DNA of 64,000 nucleotides from Candidatus Aenigmatarchaeota archaeon (GTDB taxonomy: Archaea; Aenigmatarchaeota; Aenigmatarchaeia; PWEA01): the NCBI GenBank assembly GCA_003554845.1, contig PWHK01000017.1, forward strand, positions 11,242 to 75,241, written 5' to 3'. Shown piece after piece: positions 9,473 through 56,092 of this stretch. A program made the position numbers and the translations under genes. A model generated the notes under the pieces. It had not been told where the DNA came from. It made no database searches and was given only the letters and a program-made list of their open reading frames with translations. Numbering within the stretch: position 1 is the stretch's first letter; each line of letters begins with the position of its first letter.

Positions 9473-9590
9473 GCGGCCGTGGTCTAACGGCTAGGACTCG
9501 AGCCTTCCATGGGCACGTCCGGTAAATTATTTTCGGGCGCGTAGTCCGGAGCCAGCTCGCTGTCCGGGTTCAAATCCCGGCGGCCGCACC
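9473..9590 (+). tRNA. tRNA-Gly (UCC) with 44-nt intron at canonical 37/38 position (intron ~9510-9553)
   Basis: Acceptor GCGGCCG/CGGCCGC; D-arm GTCT-AACGGCTA-GGAC; anticodon stem CGAGC/GCTCG around loop CTTCCA[intron]A; T-arm CCGGG-TTCAAAT-CCCGG; T-rich 3' flank. Confidence 0.7.
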
Positions 9591-47132: not shown

Positions 47133-47819
47133 TCATACGTTTCTGATCTTACATTCTTCCACGTACTTTTCTGCTATGTTTCTGAACTCTTCGAGTTTTT
47201 CCCTTTTGAATCCATCGATGTCCATGTAGCCTTTGTCAAGTGTATTTCTTGGTTTGAACTGCTGTATAAAGAACCTTTCTGCCCCTTCGATTCTCGTAGC
47301 TATCTTCTCTATGGCTTGTCCGTCTATTATAGTAGGCACAGCCGTTGTCCTGAACTCATAGGACTCCAGTCCAAGAACGAAGTCTATACTTTCCTCTATC
47401 TTATCTGTGTTTACTTTTATGCCACATGCCCTGTCGTAATCATCGATGGGTGCCTTTACATCCATGGCAACATAGTCGACTAATCTCTTTCTGACGACCT
47501 CCTTGAGTGTTTCTGGTATAGTTCCGTTTGTGTCGATTTTTATATCGTATCCCATTTCCTTTACCCTTCCGAGGAAGTCGAAGAGATCTGACTGTATAAG
47601 AGCTTCGCCTCCTGTTAACGTAACGCCCTCGAGCTGTCCCTTCCTCTTTTCCAGAAATCCAAGTATATCTTCTTCTGGTATCTGTTCTGCTTCTTCTGTG
47701 ACAAGTTGTTTGTTGTGGCAGAAGGGACATCTGAAGTTGCATCCTACAGTAAAGACTATGCAGGATATCTTACCAGGGTAGTCTGTGACAGTGAACTTCT
47801 CAAGTCCACCTATTTTCAT
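47133..47819 (-). CDS. nrdG: Anaerobic ribonucleoside-triphosphate reductase activating protein (radical SAM)
   Basis: TVTDYPGKISCIVFTVGCNFRCPFCHN motif; overlaps nrdD by 4 nt. Confidence 0.9.
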   Translation of the reverse strand: MKIGGLEKFTVTDYPGKISCIVFTVGCNFRCPFCHNKQLVTEEAEQIPEEDILGFLEKRKGQLEGVTLTGGEALIQSDLFDFLGRVKEMGYDIKIDTNGTIPETLKEVVRKRLVDYVAMDVKAPIDDYDRACGIKVNTDKIEESIDFVLGLESYEFRTTAVPTIIDGQAIEKIATRIEGAERFFIQQFKPRNTLDKGYMDIDGFKREKLEEFRNIAEKYVEECKIRNV

Positions 47820-49954
47820 TTTGAGACCTCTTCCTTTGGAATTACTTTTTTGGAGTAGTCGGACCTACTTTCGAACTCTTCCCGTTTTCCGGGGTTCCAC
47901 TGTTCCTTTGGTCTGAGATATCCAACTATCCTTGAGTAAACCTCACATTTTGTTCTCATGCCATCCTTCTTGCATTCAGGACACAGGTCCATTTCTCCCT
48001 TGAGATATCCGTGCGTAGGACATACAGAGAAACTTGGTGTAAGTGTATAGTATGGAAGACTATAGTCCTCGGAGATTTTCTTTACAAGTTTTTTGGTTGC
48101 TTCTATGGAAGGCATCTTCTCACCAAGCCATGAGTGGAATACCGTTCCTCCTGTATACTTGGTCTGTAGAGGTTCCTGGCGGTCCAGTGCTTCAAAAAGA
48201 TCGTCTGTCTCACCGAACGGAAGCTGTGTTGAGTTCGTGTAGATAGGTTCGGAATCTCCCAGTTCGTATGTGTTGTAGACCTTCAGATCAGGGAAGTCCT
48301 TTTTGTCCTTCCTTGCTAGTCTGTAACTTGATCCCTCGGCAGGAGTTGCCTCCAGGTTGAATATCTTACCAGTCTCTTCCTGGAAGTCTGCTATTTTGTT
48401 TCTCATGAACTCAAGTGTTCTCTCTGCGAAGTCGTGGCCTTCTTCTGTTCCAATACTTACATCCTTGAGGTTAAGAGATGCTTCGTTCATTCCCACTAGA
48501 CCTATGGTTGAGAAGTGGTTTTCCCAATGTGTTCCTTGTGATTTCTTTATGTTTCTCAGGTAGAACTTTGAGTATGGGTAGAGCCCCTTTTCTGTGAACT
48601 CCTCGAGCACCTCTCTCTTGAGAACAAGGCTTTCCTTGGCCTTCACCATGAGTTCACCGAGCTGTTCAAAGAACTCCTCCTCATTTTCCGATAGATATGC
48701 TATCCTCGGTAGGTTCATTGTAACTACACCTATGGATCCTGTGAGAGGATTTGAACCAAATAGGCCTCCTCCCCTCTTCTTAAGTTCGCGGTTGTCCAGT
48801 CTTAGTCTGCAGCACATGGATCTTGCATCGTCTGGACTCATATCGGAGTTTACAAAGTTGGAGAAATATGGTATTCCATACTTTGCTGTCATCTTCCAGA
48901 CCGGGTCAAGTGCTTCCTTTTCCCAGTTGAAGTCCTCCGTTATGTTGTATGTTGGTATAGGGAATGTAAAGGGTCTTCCCTTTGCATCTCCATCCATCAT
49001 TACTTCCGCAAAGGCTCTGTTGAGCATATCCATCTCTTTCTGGAACTCTCCGTAGGTCTTTTCCTTTGTTTCGCCTCCTATCACAACAGGCTCGTCCTTT
49101 ATCATATCAGGTACCTCTAGATCCATCGTCAGATTTGTGAATGGAGTCTGGAACCCGACCCTTGTTGGAACGTTCATATTATAGAGAAACTTCTGCATTG
49201 CCTGCTTTACTTCGTCGTAGCTAAGGTCATCGTAGTGTATGAACGGAGCCAGGTATGTATCGAAGTTTGAAACTGCCTGTGCGCCCGCAGCCTCACCCTG
49301 GAGAGTATAGAGGAAGTTCACCAGCTGAAGAAGCGCAACGTCGAAATGGCTCGCAGGTTTGGATTCTATCTTACCTCTTACACCCTTGAAACCTTCTACA
49401 AGAAGGTCCTTCAGATCCCAACCTACACAGTATGGACCCAGTGTCCCGAGATCGTGTATATGGAAAAAACCTTCATTGTGTTTTTTTCTTATCTCAGGAG
49501 GATAGATCTTCTGAAGCCAGTACTTCCTTATTATTTTATCTGTTACATGTACATTGAGTCCCTGGAGAGAGTAACTCATATTGGAGTTCTCCTTTACCCT
49601 CCAGTCGTTTTCCTTTACATAGTTCTCTACAAGGGAAACATTGCTCATGAGTTCATGGAACTTTCTGAGCTCTTCGTGTTGGCTTCTGTAGAGTATGTAA
49701 GCCTTACCAGTCTTGTAGTGACCATTTTCAACAAGGGTCTTCTCTACCTGGTCCTGTACCTGTTCTACAGTCGGTATCTCGTTTTCAGCAAGATCCTTCT
49801 CCAGGCTTTCAATGACCTCATCACAAAGCTTCTTTGAAAGATCCTTGTTTGTACCTCCGACCGCCTGAGCAGCCTCCCATATTGCTTCTGTAATTTTATT
49901 TTTTTCGAATTTTTCTATTGTTCCATCACGTTTTTTGATAGCTTGAAAGCTCAT
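47816..49954 (-). CDS. nrdD: Anaerobic ribonucleoside-triphosphate reductase (class III)
   Basis: N-terminal ATP-cone; C-terminal zinc ribbon CPTHGYLKGEMDLCPEC and glycyl radical motif SRIVGY; 712 aa. Confidence 0.9.
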   Translation of the reverse strand: MSFQAIKKRDGTIEKFEKNKITEAIWEAAQAVGGTNKDLSKKLCDEVIESLEKDLAENEIPTVEQVQDQVEKTLVENGHYKTGKAYILYRSQHEELRKFHELMSNVSLVENYVKENDWRVKENSNMSYSLQGLNVHVTDKIIRKYWLQKIYPPEIRKKHNEGFFHIHDLGTLGPYCVGWDLKDLLVEGFKGVRGKIESKPASHFDVALLQLVNFLYTLQGEAAGAQAVSNFDTYLAPFIHYDDLSYDEVKQAMQKFLYNMNVPTRVGFQTPFTNLTMDLEVPDMIKDEPVVIGGETKEKTYGEFQKEMDMLNRAFAEVMMDGDAKGRPFTFPIPTYNITEDFNWEKEALDPVWKMTAKYGIPYFSNFVNSDMSPDDARSMCCRLRLDNRELKKRGGGLFGSNPLTGSIGVVTMNLPRIAYLSENEEEFFEQLGELMVKAKESLVLKREVLEEFTEKGLYPYSKFYLRNIKKSQGTHWENHFSTIGLVGMNEASLNLKDVSIGTEEGHDFAERTLEFMRNKIADFQEETGKIFNLEATPAEGSSYRLARKDKKDFPDLKVYNTYELGDSEPIYTNSTQLPFGETDDLFEALDRQEPLQTKYTGGTVFHSWLGEKMPSIEATKKLVKKISEDYSLPYYTLTPSFSVCPTHGYLKGEMDLCPECKKDGMRTKCEVYSRIVGYLRPKEQWNPGKREEFESRSDYSKKVIPKEEVSK

Positions 49955-49958
49955 TGGA

Positions 49959-50423
49959 TCACCTTTTTATTGTTTTTATTTCTTTTTCTAGGGTTTCAAG
50001 ATCGAAGTCCTTGTACACAGACGCAAAGCGTATGTATGCTACCTTGTCCAGTTTCTTTAGACCCTCCATAACGAGATTGCCTATCTTTTTGGACTCTATC
50101 TCATTTACACCTCTTCTTCTGATCTTTTTTACAACATTTCTTATAAGTTCCTCTATCTCTTCGTTGCTGACAGGTCTTTTTTCGCATGCCCTCAATATAC
50201 CCATTTTGAGTTTGTCCTGATCGAACTCTTCTCTTATGCCATCCTTCTTGATTACTCTGACAGAGAGTTCAGGCCTTTCATAGGTCGTGAATCTGTGTTC
50301 ACAGTCTTTACACTCCCTCCTTCTTCTTATGGCTGTCGAGTCTGAGATCTCACGGGATTCTAAAACCTTTGTCGACGAAGAACATGTTGGGCATTTCAAA
50401 TTATCAGTCCTTTTTACTATCAA
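49959..50423 (-). CDS. nrdR: Transcriptional repressor NrdR (zinc ribbon + ATP-cone)
   Basis: MIVKRTDNLKCPTCSSSTKVLESREISDSTAIRRRRECKDCEHRFTTYE and an ATP-cone domain; directly upstream of nrdD-nrdG. Confidence 0.85.
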   Translation of the reverse strand: MIVKRTDNLKCPTCSSSTKVLESREISDSTAIRRRRECKDCEHRFTTYERPELSVRVIKKDGIREEFDQDKLKMGILRACEKRPVSNEEIEELIRNVVKKIRRRGVNEIESKKIGNLVMEGLKKLDKVAYIRFASVYKDFDLETLEKEIKTIKR

Positions 50424-50566: not shown

Positions 50567-51340
50567 TTAGTCGTTGGGTCCCTGGAGATCGAAGTCCTTT
50601 CCTTCGAGCTTTTTCCTTATATCTTCAATAGAACTCTCTATGGATTTCTCTGCTTCTCTGAGATCCCTTGCCCTTTTTATTGCTTCGTAGTTGGGAGCTG
50701 ATATGTATTTGAACTCGACGCCACTTTCCTCTTCTACCTCATAGAGAACCTTTTTTATTATATCGATGCCGTTTGGCTCGCGGACCCTTAGACTGAAACG
50801 TTGGCTTGTCTGCTTTTTCTTCTGCTTAATTTTATCTTCGGCGACGTCCTTTAGTTTTTCCGACCACTTTTCGTCGAGACCTCTTTTAACAAGCTCTTCC
50901 TGCCCCTTTCTTATGGCTATTTCAAAGGGATCAAGCATATCTTTGAATCCTTCCTGGAGATCAAACCCTATTTTTTTGTATACCTTATCGAGGGAAATAT
51001 CTTCTCTGTCTGCGAGTTCCTCTAGAAAGTCCTCTCCTCTTTCATCACGTTTCCATGACTGCATTCTCCTGTTTCTTTCTCTGTCGGATACTTCCTTGAG
51101 TGAAAGGTCTATTTGACCCTTCTCCTTTCTTACCTCCTTAACTTTACAGATGATCTTCTTATCTACAGTGACCCAGTCTCTTATATCACGGACCCACTTC
51201 TTTGCAATCTCGGATATATGTATCATTCCTTCTTTGTCGTACTCCTCGAGCTTAACAAAAACAGAATTGGGATTTATTTCCTTTACTGTACCAACGACCA
51301 ACTCCCCTTCAGACGGGAAGTCGCTCCTCCTCCTTACCAT
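50567..51340 (-). CDS. eif2a: Translation initiation factor 2 alpha subunit (aIF2-alpha)
   Basis: N-terminal S1 domain (GELVVGTVKEINPNSVFVKLEEY) and C-terminal alpha-beta domain; 257 aa. Confidence 0.85.
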   Translation of the reverse strand: MVRRRSDFPSEGELVVGTVKEINPNSVFVKLEEYDKEGMIHISEIAKKWVRDIRDWVTVDKKIICKVKEVRKEKGQIDLSLKEVSDRERNRRMQSWKRDERGEDFLEELADREDISLDKVYKKIGFDLQEGFKDMLDPFEIAIRKGQEELVKRGLDEKWSEKLKDVAEDKIKQKKKQTSQRFSLRVREPNGIDIIKKVLYEVEEESGVEFKYISAPNYEAIKRARDLREAEKSIESSIEDIRKKLEGKDFDLQGPND

Positions 51341-51344
51341 TGGA

Positions 51345-51527
51345 TCACCTGAAGACCTCTTCTATCTTGGACTGTATTTTGCCCATTCCGCCTGTGGGTT
51401 CACAAAGAACCGAACCACATTCTATGCACTCTACCTTGCGTGTTGGTTTGTTGAATATTGTCTGTTTATTTTCACAGTTTGAACACGATATCTTCAAAAA
51501 CTTTGAACTGAGTCTGTCTTTATCCAT
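51345..51527 (-). CDS. rps27e: 30S ribosomal protein S27e (C4 zinc finger)
   Basis: FLKISCSNCENKQTIFNKPTRKVECIECGSVLCEPTGGMGKI. Confidence 0.85.
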   Translation of the reverse strand: MDKDRLSSKFLKISCSNCENKQTIFNKPTRKVECIECGSVLCEPTGGMGKIQSKIEEVFR

Positions 51528-51531
51528 GGAA

Positions 51532-51825
51532 TCACCTTTCTATCTCCAGCCTCTTTACGCGGAATCCTCTTCCAATGGTTTGTTCTTTACCGCACTCCTG
51601 GCATTTGTAGCGCAGATCAACTCTCCTGGTAGGCTTTTCGCCGCTTACCTGTTTTGATGACTTGCCGCTGTTACCGTATCCCTTCTTTCTTCTCTTACTT
51701 TTTCTTTCTCCCTTTGAGTGTGCTGAAGGATTTAATCTCGGTCCCTGGCTTTCTCTTCTTACTTTGTGATCGGTGTGTTTATCGCATTTCGGGCAGTATC
51801 TTCTTTGTTTTTCTGGTATTTTCAT
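51532..51825 (-). CDS. rpl44e: 50S ribosomal protein L44e
   Basis: MKIPEKQRRYCPKCDKHTDHKV...KCQECGKEQ zinc-binding L44e. Confidence 0.85.
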   Translation of the reverse strand: MKIPEKQRRYCPKCDKHTDHKVRRESQGPRLNPSAHSKGERKSKRRKKGYGNSGKSSKQVSGEKPTRRVDLRYKCQECGKEQTIGRGFRVKRLEIER

Positions 51826-51931: not shown

Positions 51932-52615
51932 CTAAACTTCGGATTCCTTTGCCTTGTTTTTCTTTAACAGAAGCTCTGCAACGTCTTCGGGTAGTGTCAC
52001 AAGATCACCCTCTTCTAGTGGTCCGTAGTTGTTGTTGTCGGTTGCGACAAATCTTTCAACATCTTCTGTTATTCTGAGAAGTTTTTTTCCCTTGTCGGAC
52101 TTGACGTCTATCTCCTCAGATCCCAGACTCCTTGTCTCTACTCTGGGTTCTTCCTTCTTCTCTTCCCCTTCTTCCTCGTCTCCTTCTTTTCCCTCCTCTT
52201 CTTTAACGCATTTTTCCTTCTCCTTCTCATCGATCTTCTTACCTTCGAGTACCTTCTCAAGGAGATTTCTCTGAAGTTCACGTAGATTTTCCACTGTTTT
52301 TTCGAAGAACCTCTTTTCCTCTGGAAGCAGATTCTTTGAAACCCTTTTACTTCTTACGGAATGGAGGGCCAGAAGAAGTATCTTCTTCCTCCTTCTTTCA
52401 AATATATCGCTGACTATGTTTTTGACGTTCTCTATTTCCCTTAGAACCGTTGAGTCTCCTGTCTCATCAAATCTTTTCTGCTTTCTGTTTATCCAGTCAA
52501 CACAAGTTTTAAAGAAATTTTCTGGCAGTTCCTGGAGCTTCTCGTTCTTTTTCTCCTTTCTCTGAAACTTTCTGAATGTTTCGAACGTTATAGCGCCGTT
52601 TTCCTCTTCTGCCAT
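51932..52615 (-). CDS. GINS complex subunit (Gins51/Gins15-like) with acidic C-terminal region
   Basis: Alpha-helical N-terminal domain; position upstream of primase and PCNA as in the conserved archaeal gins-priS-pcna cluster; no family-defining motif verified. Confidence 0.45.
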   Translation of the reverse strand: MAEEENGAITFETFRKFQRKEKKNEKLQELPENFFKTCVDWINRKQKRFDETGDSTVLREIENVKNIVSDIFERRRKKILLLALHSVRSKRVSKNLLPEEKRFFEKTVENLRELQRNLLEKVLEGKKIDEKEKEKCVKEEEGKEGDEEEGEEKKEEPRVETRSLGSEEIDVKSDKGKKLLRITEDVERFVATDNNNYGPLEEGDLVTLPEDVAELLLKKNKAKESEV

Positions 52616-52647: not shown

Positions 52648-53910
52648 TTATTTCTTTTTGAACGGGTAAACAACAGGATTTTTTATCTGTATGTTGTCTG
52701 TTCCCTGTTTGCATTTGTCGTCTGGGTCACACACACCAAAGGATTTGTAGTAGAGATCATTGTCGCACGACGGGGATACAAGCTCTCTATTTTGTCTTTT
52801 GAACCATTTCAGCTGTGTGTTTATGTAGTTTTCACCTAGAGGAGGATTGTTTTTGTTGTTCCACTCTTCTAATCTCTCCTCTACACTTTCCCAGTCCCAG
52901 GCCATTCTTCTCAGGAAGGTTATGAGTATAAATACACTCCTCTTTCTTCCATCATCCAGTCCTTCTAGTATGTGTTTTATACAAGGAGGAAACCTTTTCT
53001 CTGGTATAGGATCCTCGGGTTTTATCTCCTTTGTACTGCCCTCGTCTTCTTCTTCCTTCTTCTTTCTCTTACTCATCCAGTTGATTGAATCGACCATAAG
53101 TTCCTTTGCACAGCCCTTCTTGATATTTCCTATGAACTTTCTACCAAGTTCGACGTTTTCAGGCTTTGCATCATCCATTTTGAAACCATCTATTTCGTCT
53201 TTTTCCAGAGGATAGGATACGTGCCAGGTTCCGTCGTGGAGAGAGTAAGGAAGCCTGAATAGATGTCTTTTACCCCAGTACTTTTCCACATCCACAAAGG
53301 CAAAGGGTGTCATTCTGTCTATATGTGAGTCCAGTTCATCGGAAAGCTTGTGGAAGGAACCCTTGAGATCTATAAAGTCCTGGAGAAGATCCCCCTTTAT
53401 TTTTTTTCTTATGAAGGATGCTATAGACTGTGGTATTGCAGGGAACTGTTTGCTTGTCTTCTCAAAGTCGACCTTTTTAGGAAAGGCCTTCCAAGGAACA
53501 ACAACATGGAAACCTCTTCTCCCTGAAAACTTCATGCCATAGCCATCTATTCCATAGTCCTCGAGCAAGTATATTATTTTTTTGAGTGTCATCTTGGCTG
53601 CTTCCAAGCCCATGGCAGAATCTATATCAAGGATAAGATCCCAGCCCTTCCTGAGACGGTCCATGTCCTCTTTTCTCATTTTGGTGTCGAGCTTCATAGG
53701 ATTTTTCCATCTTTCGACAGAACCATGGAATGCGACACAACCCTTCTTTACCAGTCCGAGTAGATCGTTACTGTACTGGAGAACATTGGGCCTTGAAGTA
53801 TATCCGCCACCGGAAAGAGTTCCACTTATTTCTCTGTCCTTTGATATATTCAGTATAGAATCAATTACCTCTTCTCTGCTGTAGTAGTCTATAATCTCCT
53901 TTCTGTTCAT
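52648..53910 (-). CDS. priSL: DNA primase, single-chain fusion of PriS catalytic domain and PriL C-terminal Fe-S domain
   Basis: PriS motifs LILDIDSA, FSGRRGFHVVVP, FRLPYSLHDGT in residues ~90-235; PriL-CTD motifs FPPCIKHILEGLDDGRKRSVFILITFLRRM and Cys cluster SPSCDNDLYYKSFGVCDPDDKC at the C-terminus. Confidence 0.8.
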   Translation of the reverse strand: MNRKEIIDYYSREEVIDSILNISKDREISGTLSGGGYTSRPNVLQYSNDLLGLVKKGCVAFHGSVERWKNPMKLDTKMRKEDMDRLRKGWDLILDIDSAMGLEAAKMTLKKIIYLLEDYGIDGYGMKFSGRRGFHVVVPWKAFPKKVDFEKTSKQFPAIPQSIASFIRKKIKGDLLQDFIDLKGSFHKLSDELDSHIDRMTPFAFVDVEKYWGKRHLFRLPYSLHDGTWHVSYPLEKDEIDGFKMDDAKPENVELGRKFIGNIKKGCAKELMVDSINWMSKRKKKEEEDEGSTKEIKPEDPIPEKRFPPCIKHILEGLDDGRKRSVFILITFLRRMAWDWESVEERLEEWNNKNNPPLGENYINTQLKWFKRQNRELVSPSCDNDLYYKSFGVCDPDDKCKQGTDNIQIKNPVVYPFKKK

Positions 53911-53945: not shown

Positions 53946-54698
53946 CTAGTCTTCGACACGGGGAGCGAGAACAAATGAGATCTCTATTATATCCGGTTCC
54001 TCGAACATGAGTTCCATGGGATAGTCGTTGCCTATCTTGAGTGTTGAAACCTCGGATATCTTCGAGGCCTTCAGCATCTTCTTGAGATACTCAAGGGGAT
54101 ATCTGCTCTTCGTCTCTTCTGAGACATCTATCTCTATTAAATCATCCGAATCCTCCTCGGTCCTTGCCTCTACGCTTCCCGAGTCGCTCTCTGCCAGGAG
54201 TGTAAGACTGCCTTCTTCAGCTTTAAAGAGAACAGAGTCTGCTACAATTTCGGCGTCTGCAACTCCCTTACTCAGTACAGAGCTTTTGAGTTTCATCTCT
54301 GCGGTGAAGTCGAGTTGCTTGGTTTCCGGCACCTGACCCGCCGACAGAGACAGAAGTGGAATTTCAAAATCCCTCTTTGTGCCGTCTCCTATGGATATCT
54401 TTAATCTGGACTCGTCCTCCGACAACTCAAGAACAAGACTGTCGTCCTTTTTGGCCCTTTTCAGTACATCAAGAAGCCTCTCAAGATTTATACCTATCTC
54501 GGTTTCTTCGTCGAATTCGAACTCCTCAAAGGCCCCCTTCTTTAGCTCAAAGTCGACAACGGCTACAGTTGCCCTGTCTGCTGCTCTCATTCTCAGAGAA
54601 TCTGATGTTATCTTGAAAAGGCCTTCATGTATAAGATCGGATATAGTATCCACAGAGTTCTTCAATAATGATGGATCGGATAACTTTGCTTTAAACAT
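53946..54698 (-). CDS. pcn: DNA polymerase sliding clamp PCNA
   Basis: 250 aa; MFKAKLSDPSLLKNSVDTISDLIHEGLFKITSDSLRMRAADRATVAVV is a typical archaeal PCNA N-terminus. Confidence 0.9.
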   Translation of the reverse strand: MFKAKLSDPSLLKNSVDTISDLIHEGLFKITSDSLRMRAADRATVAVVDFELKKGAFEEFEFDEETEIGINLERLLDVLKRAKKDDSLVLELSEDESRLKISIGDGTKRDFEIPLLSLSAGQVPETKQLDFTAEMKLKSSVLSKGVADAEIVADSVLFKAEEGSLTLLAESDSGSVEARTEEDSDDLIEIDVSEETKSRYPLEYLKKMLKASKISEVSTLKIGNDYPMELMFEEPDIIEISFVLAPRVED

Positions 54699-54727: not shown

Positions 54728-56092
54728 TTATTTATATAAGTCTTTTGTCCGGAGTCCTAGGTCCTCGGAGTTTTCCCTGAATACCTTTTCAAGGCCTCTT
54801 CCCCTTTCCTTTACTCTGTACCTAACCCTTACAACCGGGACATCTACATCAACAAGCCCTGAAAGATCCATGGGGGTTCCGGCAATTACAGCATCACACC
54901 TACAACTGTTTATAGTCTTTTCCAGGTCTTCTATCTGTTCTTTGCTGTAGCCCATCGCCGGTACAACCCTTTTTAGGTTGTTGTATCTTTCGAAAACATC
55001 CTTTATAGATCCGAATGCGTCATTCCTCGGATCGACTATCTTTGACGCGTTGTACTTCCGCGCCGCTATTAAACCGGCCCCATATGAAGCTCCTCCATGC
55101 GTAAGTGTCGGTCCGTCTTCCACAACCAGAACATCCTTATTCTCTATCATTTCGGGGTTTTCGACATCTACAGTTGAGTCTGCGTGGATGATTTCTGCAT
55201 CCGGATTGACCTTCTTTGTATTTTCAACTATCCTTTCTATTTCCTCGACCTCTGCGCTGTTTTCCTTGTTTACCACGACGTAGTCTGCTGACCTCAGGTT
55301 CGCCTCACCCGGGTGGAAGCTTAATTCATGTCCGGGCCTGAGTGCGTCTGCCACAACTATGTGGACGTCGGGTTTGAAAAATGGGAGTTCGTTGTTTCCA
55401 CCCTCCCATATTATGATGTCGCATTCTTCCTCGACCTCTTCAAGTATGCTTTTGTAGTCAACTCCTGCATACACAACGTTTCCATTTTCGATATGTTGCT
55501 CGTACTCTTCCCTCTCTTCTACAGTAGTGTTTTCCCTGTCAAGATCTTCCATGGTTTCAAACCTCTGTACCTTCTGCTCATGCAGATCACCATATGGCAT
55601 AGGCTCCCTTACTACAACTACGTCCTTCCCATGGTCCTTTAGTATCTTTACAATCCTTCTCGAAACCTGTGACTTTCCACATCCGGTTCTTACAGCATCT
55701 ACGGCAACGATGGGTTTGTTGGATTCCAGCATCATCTCCCGAGGGCCTATAAATCTGAAGCCTGCGCCTTCTGAAAGAACCCTTGAAGCAGTATGCATCA
55801 CGTCTTCGTGGGATATATCCGAGTACGAGAAAACCACCTGGTCCACATTCTTACTTTCTATTATACTCTCTAGGTCTTCCTCGGATACTATGGGAATACC
55901 ATCGGGGTACAGTTCACCGGCGAGTTCCGGGGGATATACTCTCTCATCTTCCCTTCCTATTTCACCTATATTCTGTGTGGATGTGTGTGTAAATGCAACC
56001 ACTCTGTAGTTTTCGTTTCCTCGGAAGAACGTATTGAAATCGTGGAAATCACGGCCTGCGGCACCCATTATAACTACGTTTTTTCTCTGCAT
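54728..56092 (-). CDS. COG2403-family P-loop protein, cyclic 2,3-diphosphoglycerate synthetase-like
   Basis: 454 aa; N-terminal Rossmann-like VVIMGAAGRDFHDFN; central P-loop AVRTGCGKSQVS; length and architecture fit the cPGS family but identity not verifiable here. Confidence 0.4.
   Translation of the reverse strand: MQRKNVVIMGAAGRDFHDFNTFFRGNENYRVVAFTHTSTQNIGEIGREDERVYPPELAGELYPDGIPIVSEEDLESIIESKNVDQVVFSYSDISHEDVMHTASRVLSEGAGFRFIGPREMMLESNKPIVAVDAVRTGCGKSQVSRRIVKILKDHGKDVVVVREPMPYGDLHEQKVQRFETMEDLDRENTTVEEREEYEQHIENGNVVYAGVDYKSILEEVEEECDIIIWEGGNNELPFFKPDVHIVVADALRPGHELSFHPGEANLRSADYVVVNKENSAEVEEIERIVENTKKVNPDAEIIHADSTVDVENPEMIENKDVLVVEDGPTLTHGGASYGAGLIAARKYNASKIVDPRNDAFGSIKDVFERYNNLKRVVPAMGYSKEQIEDLEKTINSCRCDAVIAGTPMDLSGLVDVDVPVVRVRYRVKERGRGLEKVFRENSEDLGLRTKDLYK

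Follow-up and report, generated by a model that had tools for sequence, protein, structure and literature searches.

A single-chain PriS-PriL primase gene in the PPsG-LSIN gene cluster of a putative Aenigmarchaeota-type archaeon

The primase gene and its motifs

The window analyzed in this study, a 64,000-nucleotide (nt) stretch of contig PWHK01000017.1 (assembly GCA_003554845.1), contains an open reading frame (ORF) for a primase in a single chain. In the ORF list this ORF lies at 52648..53910 on the minus strand, starts with ATG and encodes 420 amino acids (aa). The encoded protein is a PriS-type archaeo-eukaryotic primase (AEP) domain joined to the C-terminal Fe-S domain of the primase large subunit (PriL-CTD), and the N-terminal domain of PriL (PriL-NTD) is absent. 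This identification of two domains in one chain is based on profile and fold matches to each half and on cysteine matches in the C-terminal half. A sequence-only reading of the window had described a 420-aa ORF that combines PriS motifs with a PriL-type four-cysteine Fe-S domain, and every motif that it named was located: D95-I-D97, S129-GRRGF-H135, R219-LPYSL-H225, PPC (308–310), GRKR (321–324) and F332-L333. The C-terminal cysteines are at positions 310, 382, 394 and 400.

According to the AEP motif definitions in PMC10250227, motif I (hhhDhD/E) corresponds to LILDID (92–97), motif II (sxH) to GFH (133–135) and motif III (hD/E) to VE (208–209). The PriS catalytic signature proposed in the sequence-only reading is therefore retained for DxD and SGxRGFH. 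Its third element, RxPYSxH, is a separate block further downstream; the hD/E motif is V208-E209, with E or D at the acidic position in all 30 aligned homologues. Coordinates of the gene, its motifs and its neighbors are listed in Table 1.

Table 1. Positions of the primase gene, its domains and motifs, and adjacent genes in the window
Feature	Position	Strand	Evidence
Complete single-chain PriS-PriL(CTD) primase gene, 420 aa + stop	52648..53910	-	ORF list; Pfam PF01896, PF21686, PF04104
N-terminal AEP (PriS-type) catalytic domain, aa 1-262	53125..53910	-	Foldseek and family profile vs PDB
AEP motif I, D95-I-D97, metal-binding aspartates	53620..53628	-	D95, D97 invariant 30/30
SGRRGFH block with AEP motif II (sxH; H135)	53506..53526	-	G130, H135 invariant
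AEP motif III (hD/E), V208-E209, third acidic residue	53284..53289	-	E/D at 209 in 30/30; end of predicted strand 206-208
RLPYSLH block, aa 219-225	53236..53256	-	R219, P221 invariant
Linker, aa 263-303: helix 269-289, then low-confidence Lys/Glu-rich loop	53002..53124	-	DSSP of AlphaFold2 model
PriL-type [4Fe-4S] domain (PriL-CTD), C-terminal, aa 304-420	52651..53001	-	
FPPC motif, holds first cluster cysteine C310	52981..52992	-	Invariant; matches LFPPC of P. abyssi PriL 224-229
GRKRS basic motif, aa 321-325	52936..52950	-	Invariant 30/30; on helix after FPPC
C382-x11-C394-x5-C400, remaining three cluster cysteines	52711..52767	-	All invariant; align to P. abyssi PriL 335-369
PCNA sliding clamp, directly upstream, 35-nt gap	53946..54698	-	PF00705, PF02747; TIGR00590 117.9 bits, cutoff 99.1
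GINS subunit (Gins51/Gins15 type), directly downstream, 32-nt gap	51932..52615	-	PF22090 Gins51_C, PF05916 Sld5
L44e, S27e, aIF2-alpha: 'LSI' part of LSIN cluster	50567..51825	-	PF00935, PF01667, PF07541, S1

Domain matches, conservation and predicted structure

In Pfam searches with the single sequence, the primase matches DNA_primase_S (PF01896) at aa 105–235 with 27.2 bits (cutoff 26.8), DNA_primase_lrg (PF04104) at aa 282–361 with 26.1 bits (cutoff 22.4; profile positions 86–165 of 266) and LigD_Prim-Pol at aa 44–152. Both halves, for which a check with hidden Markov models (HMMs) had been proposed in the sequence-only reading, are above the thresholds of their own families, narrowly in each case. 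Taken together, Pfam and NCBIfam place PriS on aa 100–276 and the C-terminal part of PriL on aa 264–416. The NCBIfam PriL model NF002589 is matched over profile positions 199–338 of 348, i.e., in its C-terminal part only. With PriL-profile matches confined to the C-terminal part, and a segment before the CTD that consists of one helix and a loop, the PriS-binding N-terminal domain of PriL is absent from this protein. The PriL portion claimed earlier is thus present as an Fe-S C-terminal domain and not as a complete PriL.

Single-sequence phmmer searches against PDB were marginal for PriS (E about 0.03) and gave PriL at E 0.25, and family profiles and structure were therefore sought. The family profile matches PriS chains at E about 2e-6 to 1.4e-5. 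The profile of the CTD alone has a sole PDB match, the Pyrococcus abyssi PriL (9f26_B; E 2.8e-5, two segments), with FPPC aligned on LFPPC 224–229 and PPNC...C.PD..C on 335–369. All four primase cysteines therefore fall on PriL cysteines. When C-terminal domains were isolated, 19 of 20 match PF04104 unaided (best E 1.2e-8).

Homologues are abundant. A search of a 5.8-billion-protein collection (90%-identity clusters) retrieved 1,120 at E ≤ 1e-3, the best 120 of which are 398–479 aa long and share 42–100% identity with the query at 95–100% query coverage. An HMM search of 1.84 billion representatives (50% identity) retrieved 1,792 cluster representatives at E ≤ 1e-3, of which 367 reach E ≤ 1e-30. 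Among the 120–150 top-scoring matches of each protein search, the aligned region takes in almost the entire query. Conservation was assessed in an alignment of 30 homologues with 42–78% identity, which is unbroken from end to end, including the linker helix; the linker is the most variable part. D95, D97, H135, R215, H216, R219, P221, FPPC (307–310), GRKRS (321–325), F332, L333, C382, C394 and C400 are invariant, and residue 225 varies (H in 18, N in 12). Conservation does not extend to the remaining two cysteines, C58 and C267. Archaeal PriS carries a Zn-binding module; no conserved Cys/His cluster was found outside the CTD in the 30-homologue alignment.

An AlphaFold2 model built from the alignment has a mean predicted local distance difference test score (pLDDT) of 90.8 at full length and 90.2 for the CTD alone. 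In the model, an N-terminal domain of mixed alpha/beta structure is followed by a long helix (269–289), a loop at approximately 290–300, where pLDDT drops to about 65, and a helical CTD. Foldseek searches against PDB related the N-terminal part to Prim-PolC, LigD-pol and the PriS of human, yeast, Pyrococcus furiosus, P. horikoshii and P. abyssi (E 7e-10 to 5e-7, probability 1.00). Foldseek with the full-length model is dominated by the N-terminal domain and is uninformative on the C-terminus. The C-terminus has the PriL-CTD helical fold and is a true four-cysteine PriL-CTD, as distinct from the helix bundles of PriCT or pRN1 type.

Several relatives show additional segments. Many carry an insertion of ~25–90 aa just before motif III (profile positions about 200–212), as in P0140, P0142, P0163 and P0176 (about 490–560 aa) and, at alignment columns 226–249, in P0014; the window primase is without it. 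Inteins with LAGLIDADG homing-endonuclease domains interrupt P0126, P0165, P0185 and P0222 (883–1019 aa) at no fewer than two, i.e., at least two, different sites, all in the catalytic domain. An extra tail of ~30 aa after the PriL-CTD, resembling a C2H2 zinc finger (G[FY]xC..C.K.F.....L..H....H), is found in P0042, P0046, P0055, P0084, P0091 and P0120, and the precomputed Pfam annotation of P0091 includes zf-C2H2. P0204 (640 aa) is a candidate fusion of the fused primase with a C-terminal S-adenosylmethionine (SAM)-dependent methyltransferase domain (aa 460–614).

Comparison with NEQ395 and other primases

The Nanoarchaeum equitans protein NEQ395 (393 aa) is an active monomeric PriS-PriL primase (Schneider, Bergsch and Lipps, NAR 2023; PMC10250227). 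Its catalytic residues are D87, D89 and H125, its cluster cysteines are C289, C364, C376 and C384, and binding of a [4Fe-4S] cluster has been shown (PMC10250227). Proteomic or transcriptomic detection of NEQ395 in growing cells has also been reported. NEQ395 is highly active, synthesizes primers of about 9 nt and starts them at template triplets whose middle base is T. Mutants of its PriS domain are inactive, D87A+D89A and H125A served as the inactive partners in a trans-complementation test, and the domains do not complement in trans. Shortening of the linker leads to aborted products of 4–5 nt, and in the NEQ395 model a long linker helix is followed by a protease-sensitive loop (PMC10250227).

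Compared through published residue numbers rather than by sequence alignment, the window protein and NEQ395 share the order of AEP domain, linker helix, flexible loop and four-cysteine PriL-CTD in one chain, with no PriL-NTD in either. D95/D97/H135 correspond to D87/D89/H125, and S129 and R132 to S119 and K122; the latter two pairs, like H135/H125, are matched from their spacing. Cysteines 310/382/394/400 in the window protein (spacing 72/12/6) correspond to 289/364/376/384 in NEQ395 (spacing 75/12/8). The window protein is 27 aa longer (420 versus 393) and is of the Aenigmarchaeota type, whereas NEQ395 is from the Nanoarchaeota. In addition, the window gene retains its place in the PCNA-primase-GINS-L44e-S27e-aIF2alpha run, an arrangement that is not reported for N. 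equitans by Berthon et al. (2008; PMC2643942).

Canonical heterodimeric primases (P. abyssi 9f26, human 4bpu/8d0k, yeast 6di2) have the same AEP fold and motifs and the same PriL-CTD fold with aligned cysteines. They consist of two polypeptides rather than one, and their PriL-NTD, which docks on PriS, is absent here. Canonical PriS also contains insertions, and a non-conserved helical insert is present in human PriS (PMC10250227). Like the window protein, PolpTN2 and the pRN1/RepB'-type plasmid primases are single chains with an AEP domain and a C-terminal helical domain needed for initiation. They are, however, independent in origin and borne by plasmids or viruses, whereas the window gene lies in a core chromosomal cluster. 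Raymann et al. (2014; PMC3914693) report no sequence similarity between the pTN2 primase and the primases of nanosized archaea, and the evolutionary relationship of the pRN1/RepB'-type helix-bundle domains to PriL is described as unclear (PMC10250227).

Gene neighborhood

The primase gene belongs to a minus-strand run of ten genes with gaps of 4–143 nt, encoding a radical-SAM protein, a 454-aa P-loop protein, PCNA, primase, GINS, L44e, S27e, aIF2-alpha, NrdR and NrdD. The segment from PCNA to aIF2-alpha is on one strand with gaps of 4–106 nt and has the published PPsG-LSIN order, with Nop10 absent. In that supercluster, PCNA-PriS-Gins15 is joined to L44E-S27E-aIF2alpha(-Nop10) (Berthon et al., 2008; PMC2643942). 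The window has the same order and a Gins15-type GINS. It differs in having the fused gene in the priS slot and NrdR/NrdD/NrdG in place of Nop10 after aIF2-alpha. The GINS-primase-PCNA replisome operon of the sequence-only reading accordingly stands as a same-strand adjacency that is part of the PPsG-LSIN supercluster (PMC2643942), and co-transcription is suggested by the spacing.

Synteny was counted in the 80 best of 359 related genome loci. GINS is downstream of the primase gene on the same strand in 68 of the 80, and L44e, S27e, aIF2-alpha and PCNA are found in 66, 32, 24 and 27 of them, respectively. Where L44e, S27e and aIF2-alpha occur, they lie downstream of GINS and share the strand of the primase, with a single exception. 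A six-frame search of the 64-kb window with HMMs of each half detected no second PriS-like or PriL-like ORF (next best E > 0.05), in line with the earlier statement that no priL is adjacent. No GC composition break was found at the primase locus within the window. The background genes named earlier are also present, namely those for acetyl-CoA synthetase (ACS), subunits of pyruvate:ferredoxin oxidoreductase (PFOR), RNase P Rpp14 and Rpp30, and the isoprenoid-related thiolase, HMG-CoA-synthase-like protein and polyprenyl synthase.

Flanked by the radical-SAM gene and PCNA is the gene for the 454-aa P-loop protein (54728..56092, minus strand). This protein is distantly related to cyclic 2,3-diphosphoglycerate synthetase (PDB 9sxb_A, E 2.2e-10, only aa 221–306), has weak Pfam matches and no NCBIfam match, and occurs in 3 of the 80 related loci. 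Directly after aIF2-alpha (47133..50423, minus strand) are genes for NrdR and for the class III anaerobic ribonucleotide reductase NrdD and its activase NrdG. The NrdR is of bacterial type (TIGR00244, 181.9 bits, cutoff 124.65). These three genes occupy the canonical Nop10 position of LSIN, where no Nop10 ORF is present. NrdR is found in 7 and NrdD in 6 of the 80 loci, an arrangement common only to the closest Aenigmatarchaeota metagenome-assembled genomes (MAGs). Elsewhere in the window, a Rfam tRNA match covers 116 nt (9473..9588, plus strand; 51.5 bits), and ARAGORN reports no tRNA in the window; the match is probably an intron-containing archaeal tRNA.

Distribution of the fused primase and its host

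A scan of GTDB representatives found relatives in 359 species-representative genomes, a set that does not include the genome of the window itself; the best match has 80% identity. Most of the 80 loci kept are labelled Aenigmatarchaeota or are unclassified, with one each labelled Pacearchaeota and Nanoarchaeota; the fused homologues in MAGs labelled Pacearchaeota or Nanoarchaeota share 43–45% identity. The nearest loci are from the Aenigmatarchaeota MAGs T1Sed10_94, T1Sed10_105, T1Sed10_213, B1Sed10_69, D1M06_85 and D1M06_87 (72–80% identity), and in 6 of the 8 closest loci 9–11 of the 11 queried genes are syntenic. NCBI already contains a 420-aa protein with the same sequence (P0270), encoded on a contig of 134.5 kb, and P0001 differs by one residue. 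From the identity and synteny of the nearest loci, the host is assigned to DPANN Cluster 2, Aenigmarchaeota type. The isolate names T1Sed10 and B1Sed10 presumably denote hypersaline soda-lake sediment metagenomes; if so, the lineage would be one of haloalkaliphilic Aenigmarchaeota. The window proteome looks acidic, with a median predicted isoelectric point (pI) of 5.3 and 57% of the proteins below 5.5 (ORFs ≥100 aa).

Fused primases of this kind have a published record, notably in Raymann et al. (2014; PMC3914693) and Dombrowski et al. (2020; PMC7414124). According to Raymann et al., the N. equitans fusion was described by Iyer et al. (2005), and the same fused primase occurs in other Nanoarchaeota, in Nanohaloarchaea and in Parvarchaeum. 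Convergence was excluded there because the fused sequences are related, and the choice between common ancestry and horizontal replacement was left open. One nanohaloarchaeon was reported to carry the short primase as two adjacent genes (PMC3914693). Dombrowski et al. found that DPANN Cluster 1 carries canonical priS and priL, whereas the fused gene is present throughout Undinarchaeota and throughout Cluster 2, in which Aenigmarchaeota are explicitly included. Phylogenies built from the split halves favor one origin, placed at the base of Undinarchaeota plus Cluster 2, i.e., a synapomorphy, and the marker table carries the remark 'fused in small DPANN' (PMC7414124).

The window protein is a member of this group, and nothing of substance distinguishes it from the fused primases of Undinarchaeota plus DPANN Cluster 2 described in PMC3914693 and PMC7414124. 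The sequence-only reading had treated as open the question of whether fusion marks the Nanoarchaeota or has come about independently more than once, and had seen significance in the less reduced genomic background. The former is answered by these two studies and the latter had lost its novelty, as Aenigmarchaeota were already covered by Dombrowski et al. (PMC7414124). In public annotation, relatives are named 'DNA primase small subunit domain-containing protein' or 'hypothetical', and precomputed Pfam usually misses the PriL-CTD. Automated pipelines therefore make such genomes look as if they were without PriL.

Role and origin of the fused primase

The window gene very probably encodes its host's replicative DNA primase, a member of the NEQ395 family, in an Aenigmarchaeota-type archaeon from DPANN Cluster 2. 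It occupies the priS slot of a conserved supercluster whose order is kept in most of the 80 genomes, which supports vertical inheritance and a role in replication. If the protein works like NEQ395, its N-terminal AEP domain would bind two metal ions and the elongating NTP and would make the phosphodiester bonds, with D95/D97 and E209 as putative metal ligands, H135 as a further predicted catalytic residue and S129/R132 as candidate pocket residues. A [4Fe-4S] cluster, if loaded on C310, C382, C394 and C400, would hold the PriL-type helical domain together, and this domain may supply the initiating-nucleotide/template site for the first dinucleotide. The GRKRS motif is predicted to bind the template or the initiating nucleotide, as suggested by the PriL-domain mutants of NEQ395. 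The helix of ~20 residues and the flexible loop would tether the two domains, replacing the subunit-bridging PriL-NTD of the heterodimers, and the tether probably sets primer length. Co-transcription of the gene with PCNA and GINS, probable from the gene spacing, would fit the handing of short RNA primers to the replisome.

Several points weigh against this assignment. The single-sequence Pfam scores barely exceed their thresholds. In both HMM and Foldseek comparisons, the catalytic domain is at least as close to LigD-pol/Prim-PolC as to canonical PriS, so the label 'PriS' rests on family context and published phylogeny and not on those scores. The likeness to NEQ395 is drawn from residue numbers, as noted above. 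Single cysteine mutants of NEQ395 lose the cluster and still prime in vitro (PMC10250227), which makes the role of the cluster uncertain. The search for a second primase or a stand-alone priL covered 64 kb of the genome, and it is by extrapolation that the fused gene would be its sole primase.

Two of these points, LigD-pol/Prim-PolC among the top Foldseek and Pfam matches and a search that spanned the 64-kb window, leave some room for an accessory or mobile-element primase-polymerase that acts in repair or in plasmid or virus replication, with the true PriS/PriL pair encoded elsewhere in the genome; monomeric AEPs with helix-bundle domains are indeed typical of plasmids and viruses (PMC10250227). 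We judge this unlikely, because core genes surround the locus in a conserved arrangement and the PriL-CTD is genuine. The gene is housed in the core PCNA-GINS-ribosomal-protein supercluster and holds that position in 66–68 of 80 related genomes, the locus shows no GC composition break, and the encoded C-terminus is a four-cysteine PriL-CTD rather than a PriCT or pRN1-type domain. Moreover, Dombrowski et al. (PMC7414124) assign the fused version to Cluster 2 DPANN and the canonical pair only to Cluster 1, and N. equitans has no other AEP (PMC10250227).

An independent, convergent fusion in a less reduced lineage, by which PriS-PriL fusion would recur, is a still slighter prospect. The genomic background is richer than that of N. 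equitans (ACS, PFOR, RNase P proteins and isoprenoid genes), and an independent PriS-PriL-like fusion does exist on plasmid pTN2. Nevertheless, the protein aligns over its whole length, through the linker helix, with fused homologues numbering in the hundreds, and its catalytic residues and cysteines keep the NEQ395 spacing. The published split-half phylogeny indicates one origin (PMC7414124) and Raymann et al. had excluded convergence (PMC3914693); on this homology and phylogeny, convergence is rejected. The chance that the single ORF results from a frameshift or misassembly joining adjacent priS and priL genes is negligible. Given the split short primase reported for one nanohaloarchaeon (PMC3914693), split and fused genes may be hard to tell apart in a draft assembly. 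An artefact is contradicted by the identical P0270 and the one-residue-different P0001 on independent public contigs, by the single frame that runs across the junction in each of the 120 homologues listed, and by the confident model of the junction helix (269–289). The gene thus withstands the frameshift test that the sequence-only reading had itself set, and an artefact is rejected.

The PriS-PriL(CTD) primase of the window is therefore best regarded as a correctly recognized but ordinary case. The fused primase is the published standard primase of DPANN Cluster 2, and its presence in Aenigmarchaeota was already on record, which makes the observation ordinary. Since 2020 it has been used as a phylogenetic marker for Undinarchaeota and DPANN Cluster 2, and its enzymology has been described for NEQ395. 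Beyond correct annotation, the finding has little significance.

The position of the gene may add to this picture. In Aenigmarchaeota-type genomes, and also in the MAGs labelled Pacearchaeota and Nanoarchaeota, the fused gene is in the exact ancestral priS slot, which points to an origin in place. On balance, we favor in situ fusion, in which priS captured a PriL-CTD segment at its 3' end, followed by vertical inheritance. The supercluster position of the fused gene is not stated in the consulted portions of the fused-primase literature, and it may be known to specialists. If the fusion did arise in situ, this would argue against replacement by a mobile element, a question left open by Raymann et al. 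(2014; PMC3914693), and would provide independent, synteny-based and modest support for the fused primase as a single-origin synapomorphy.

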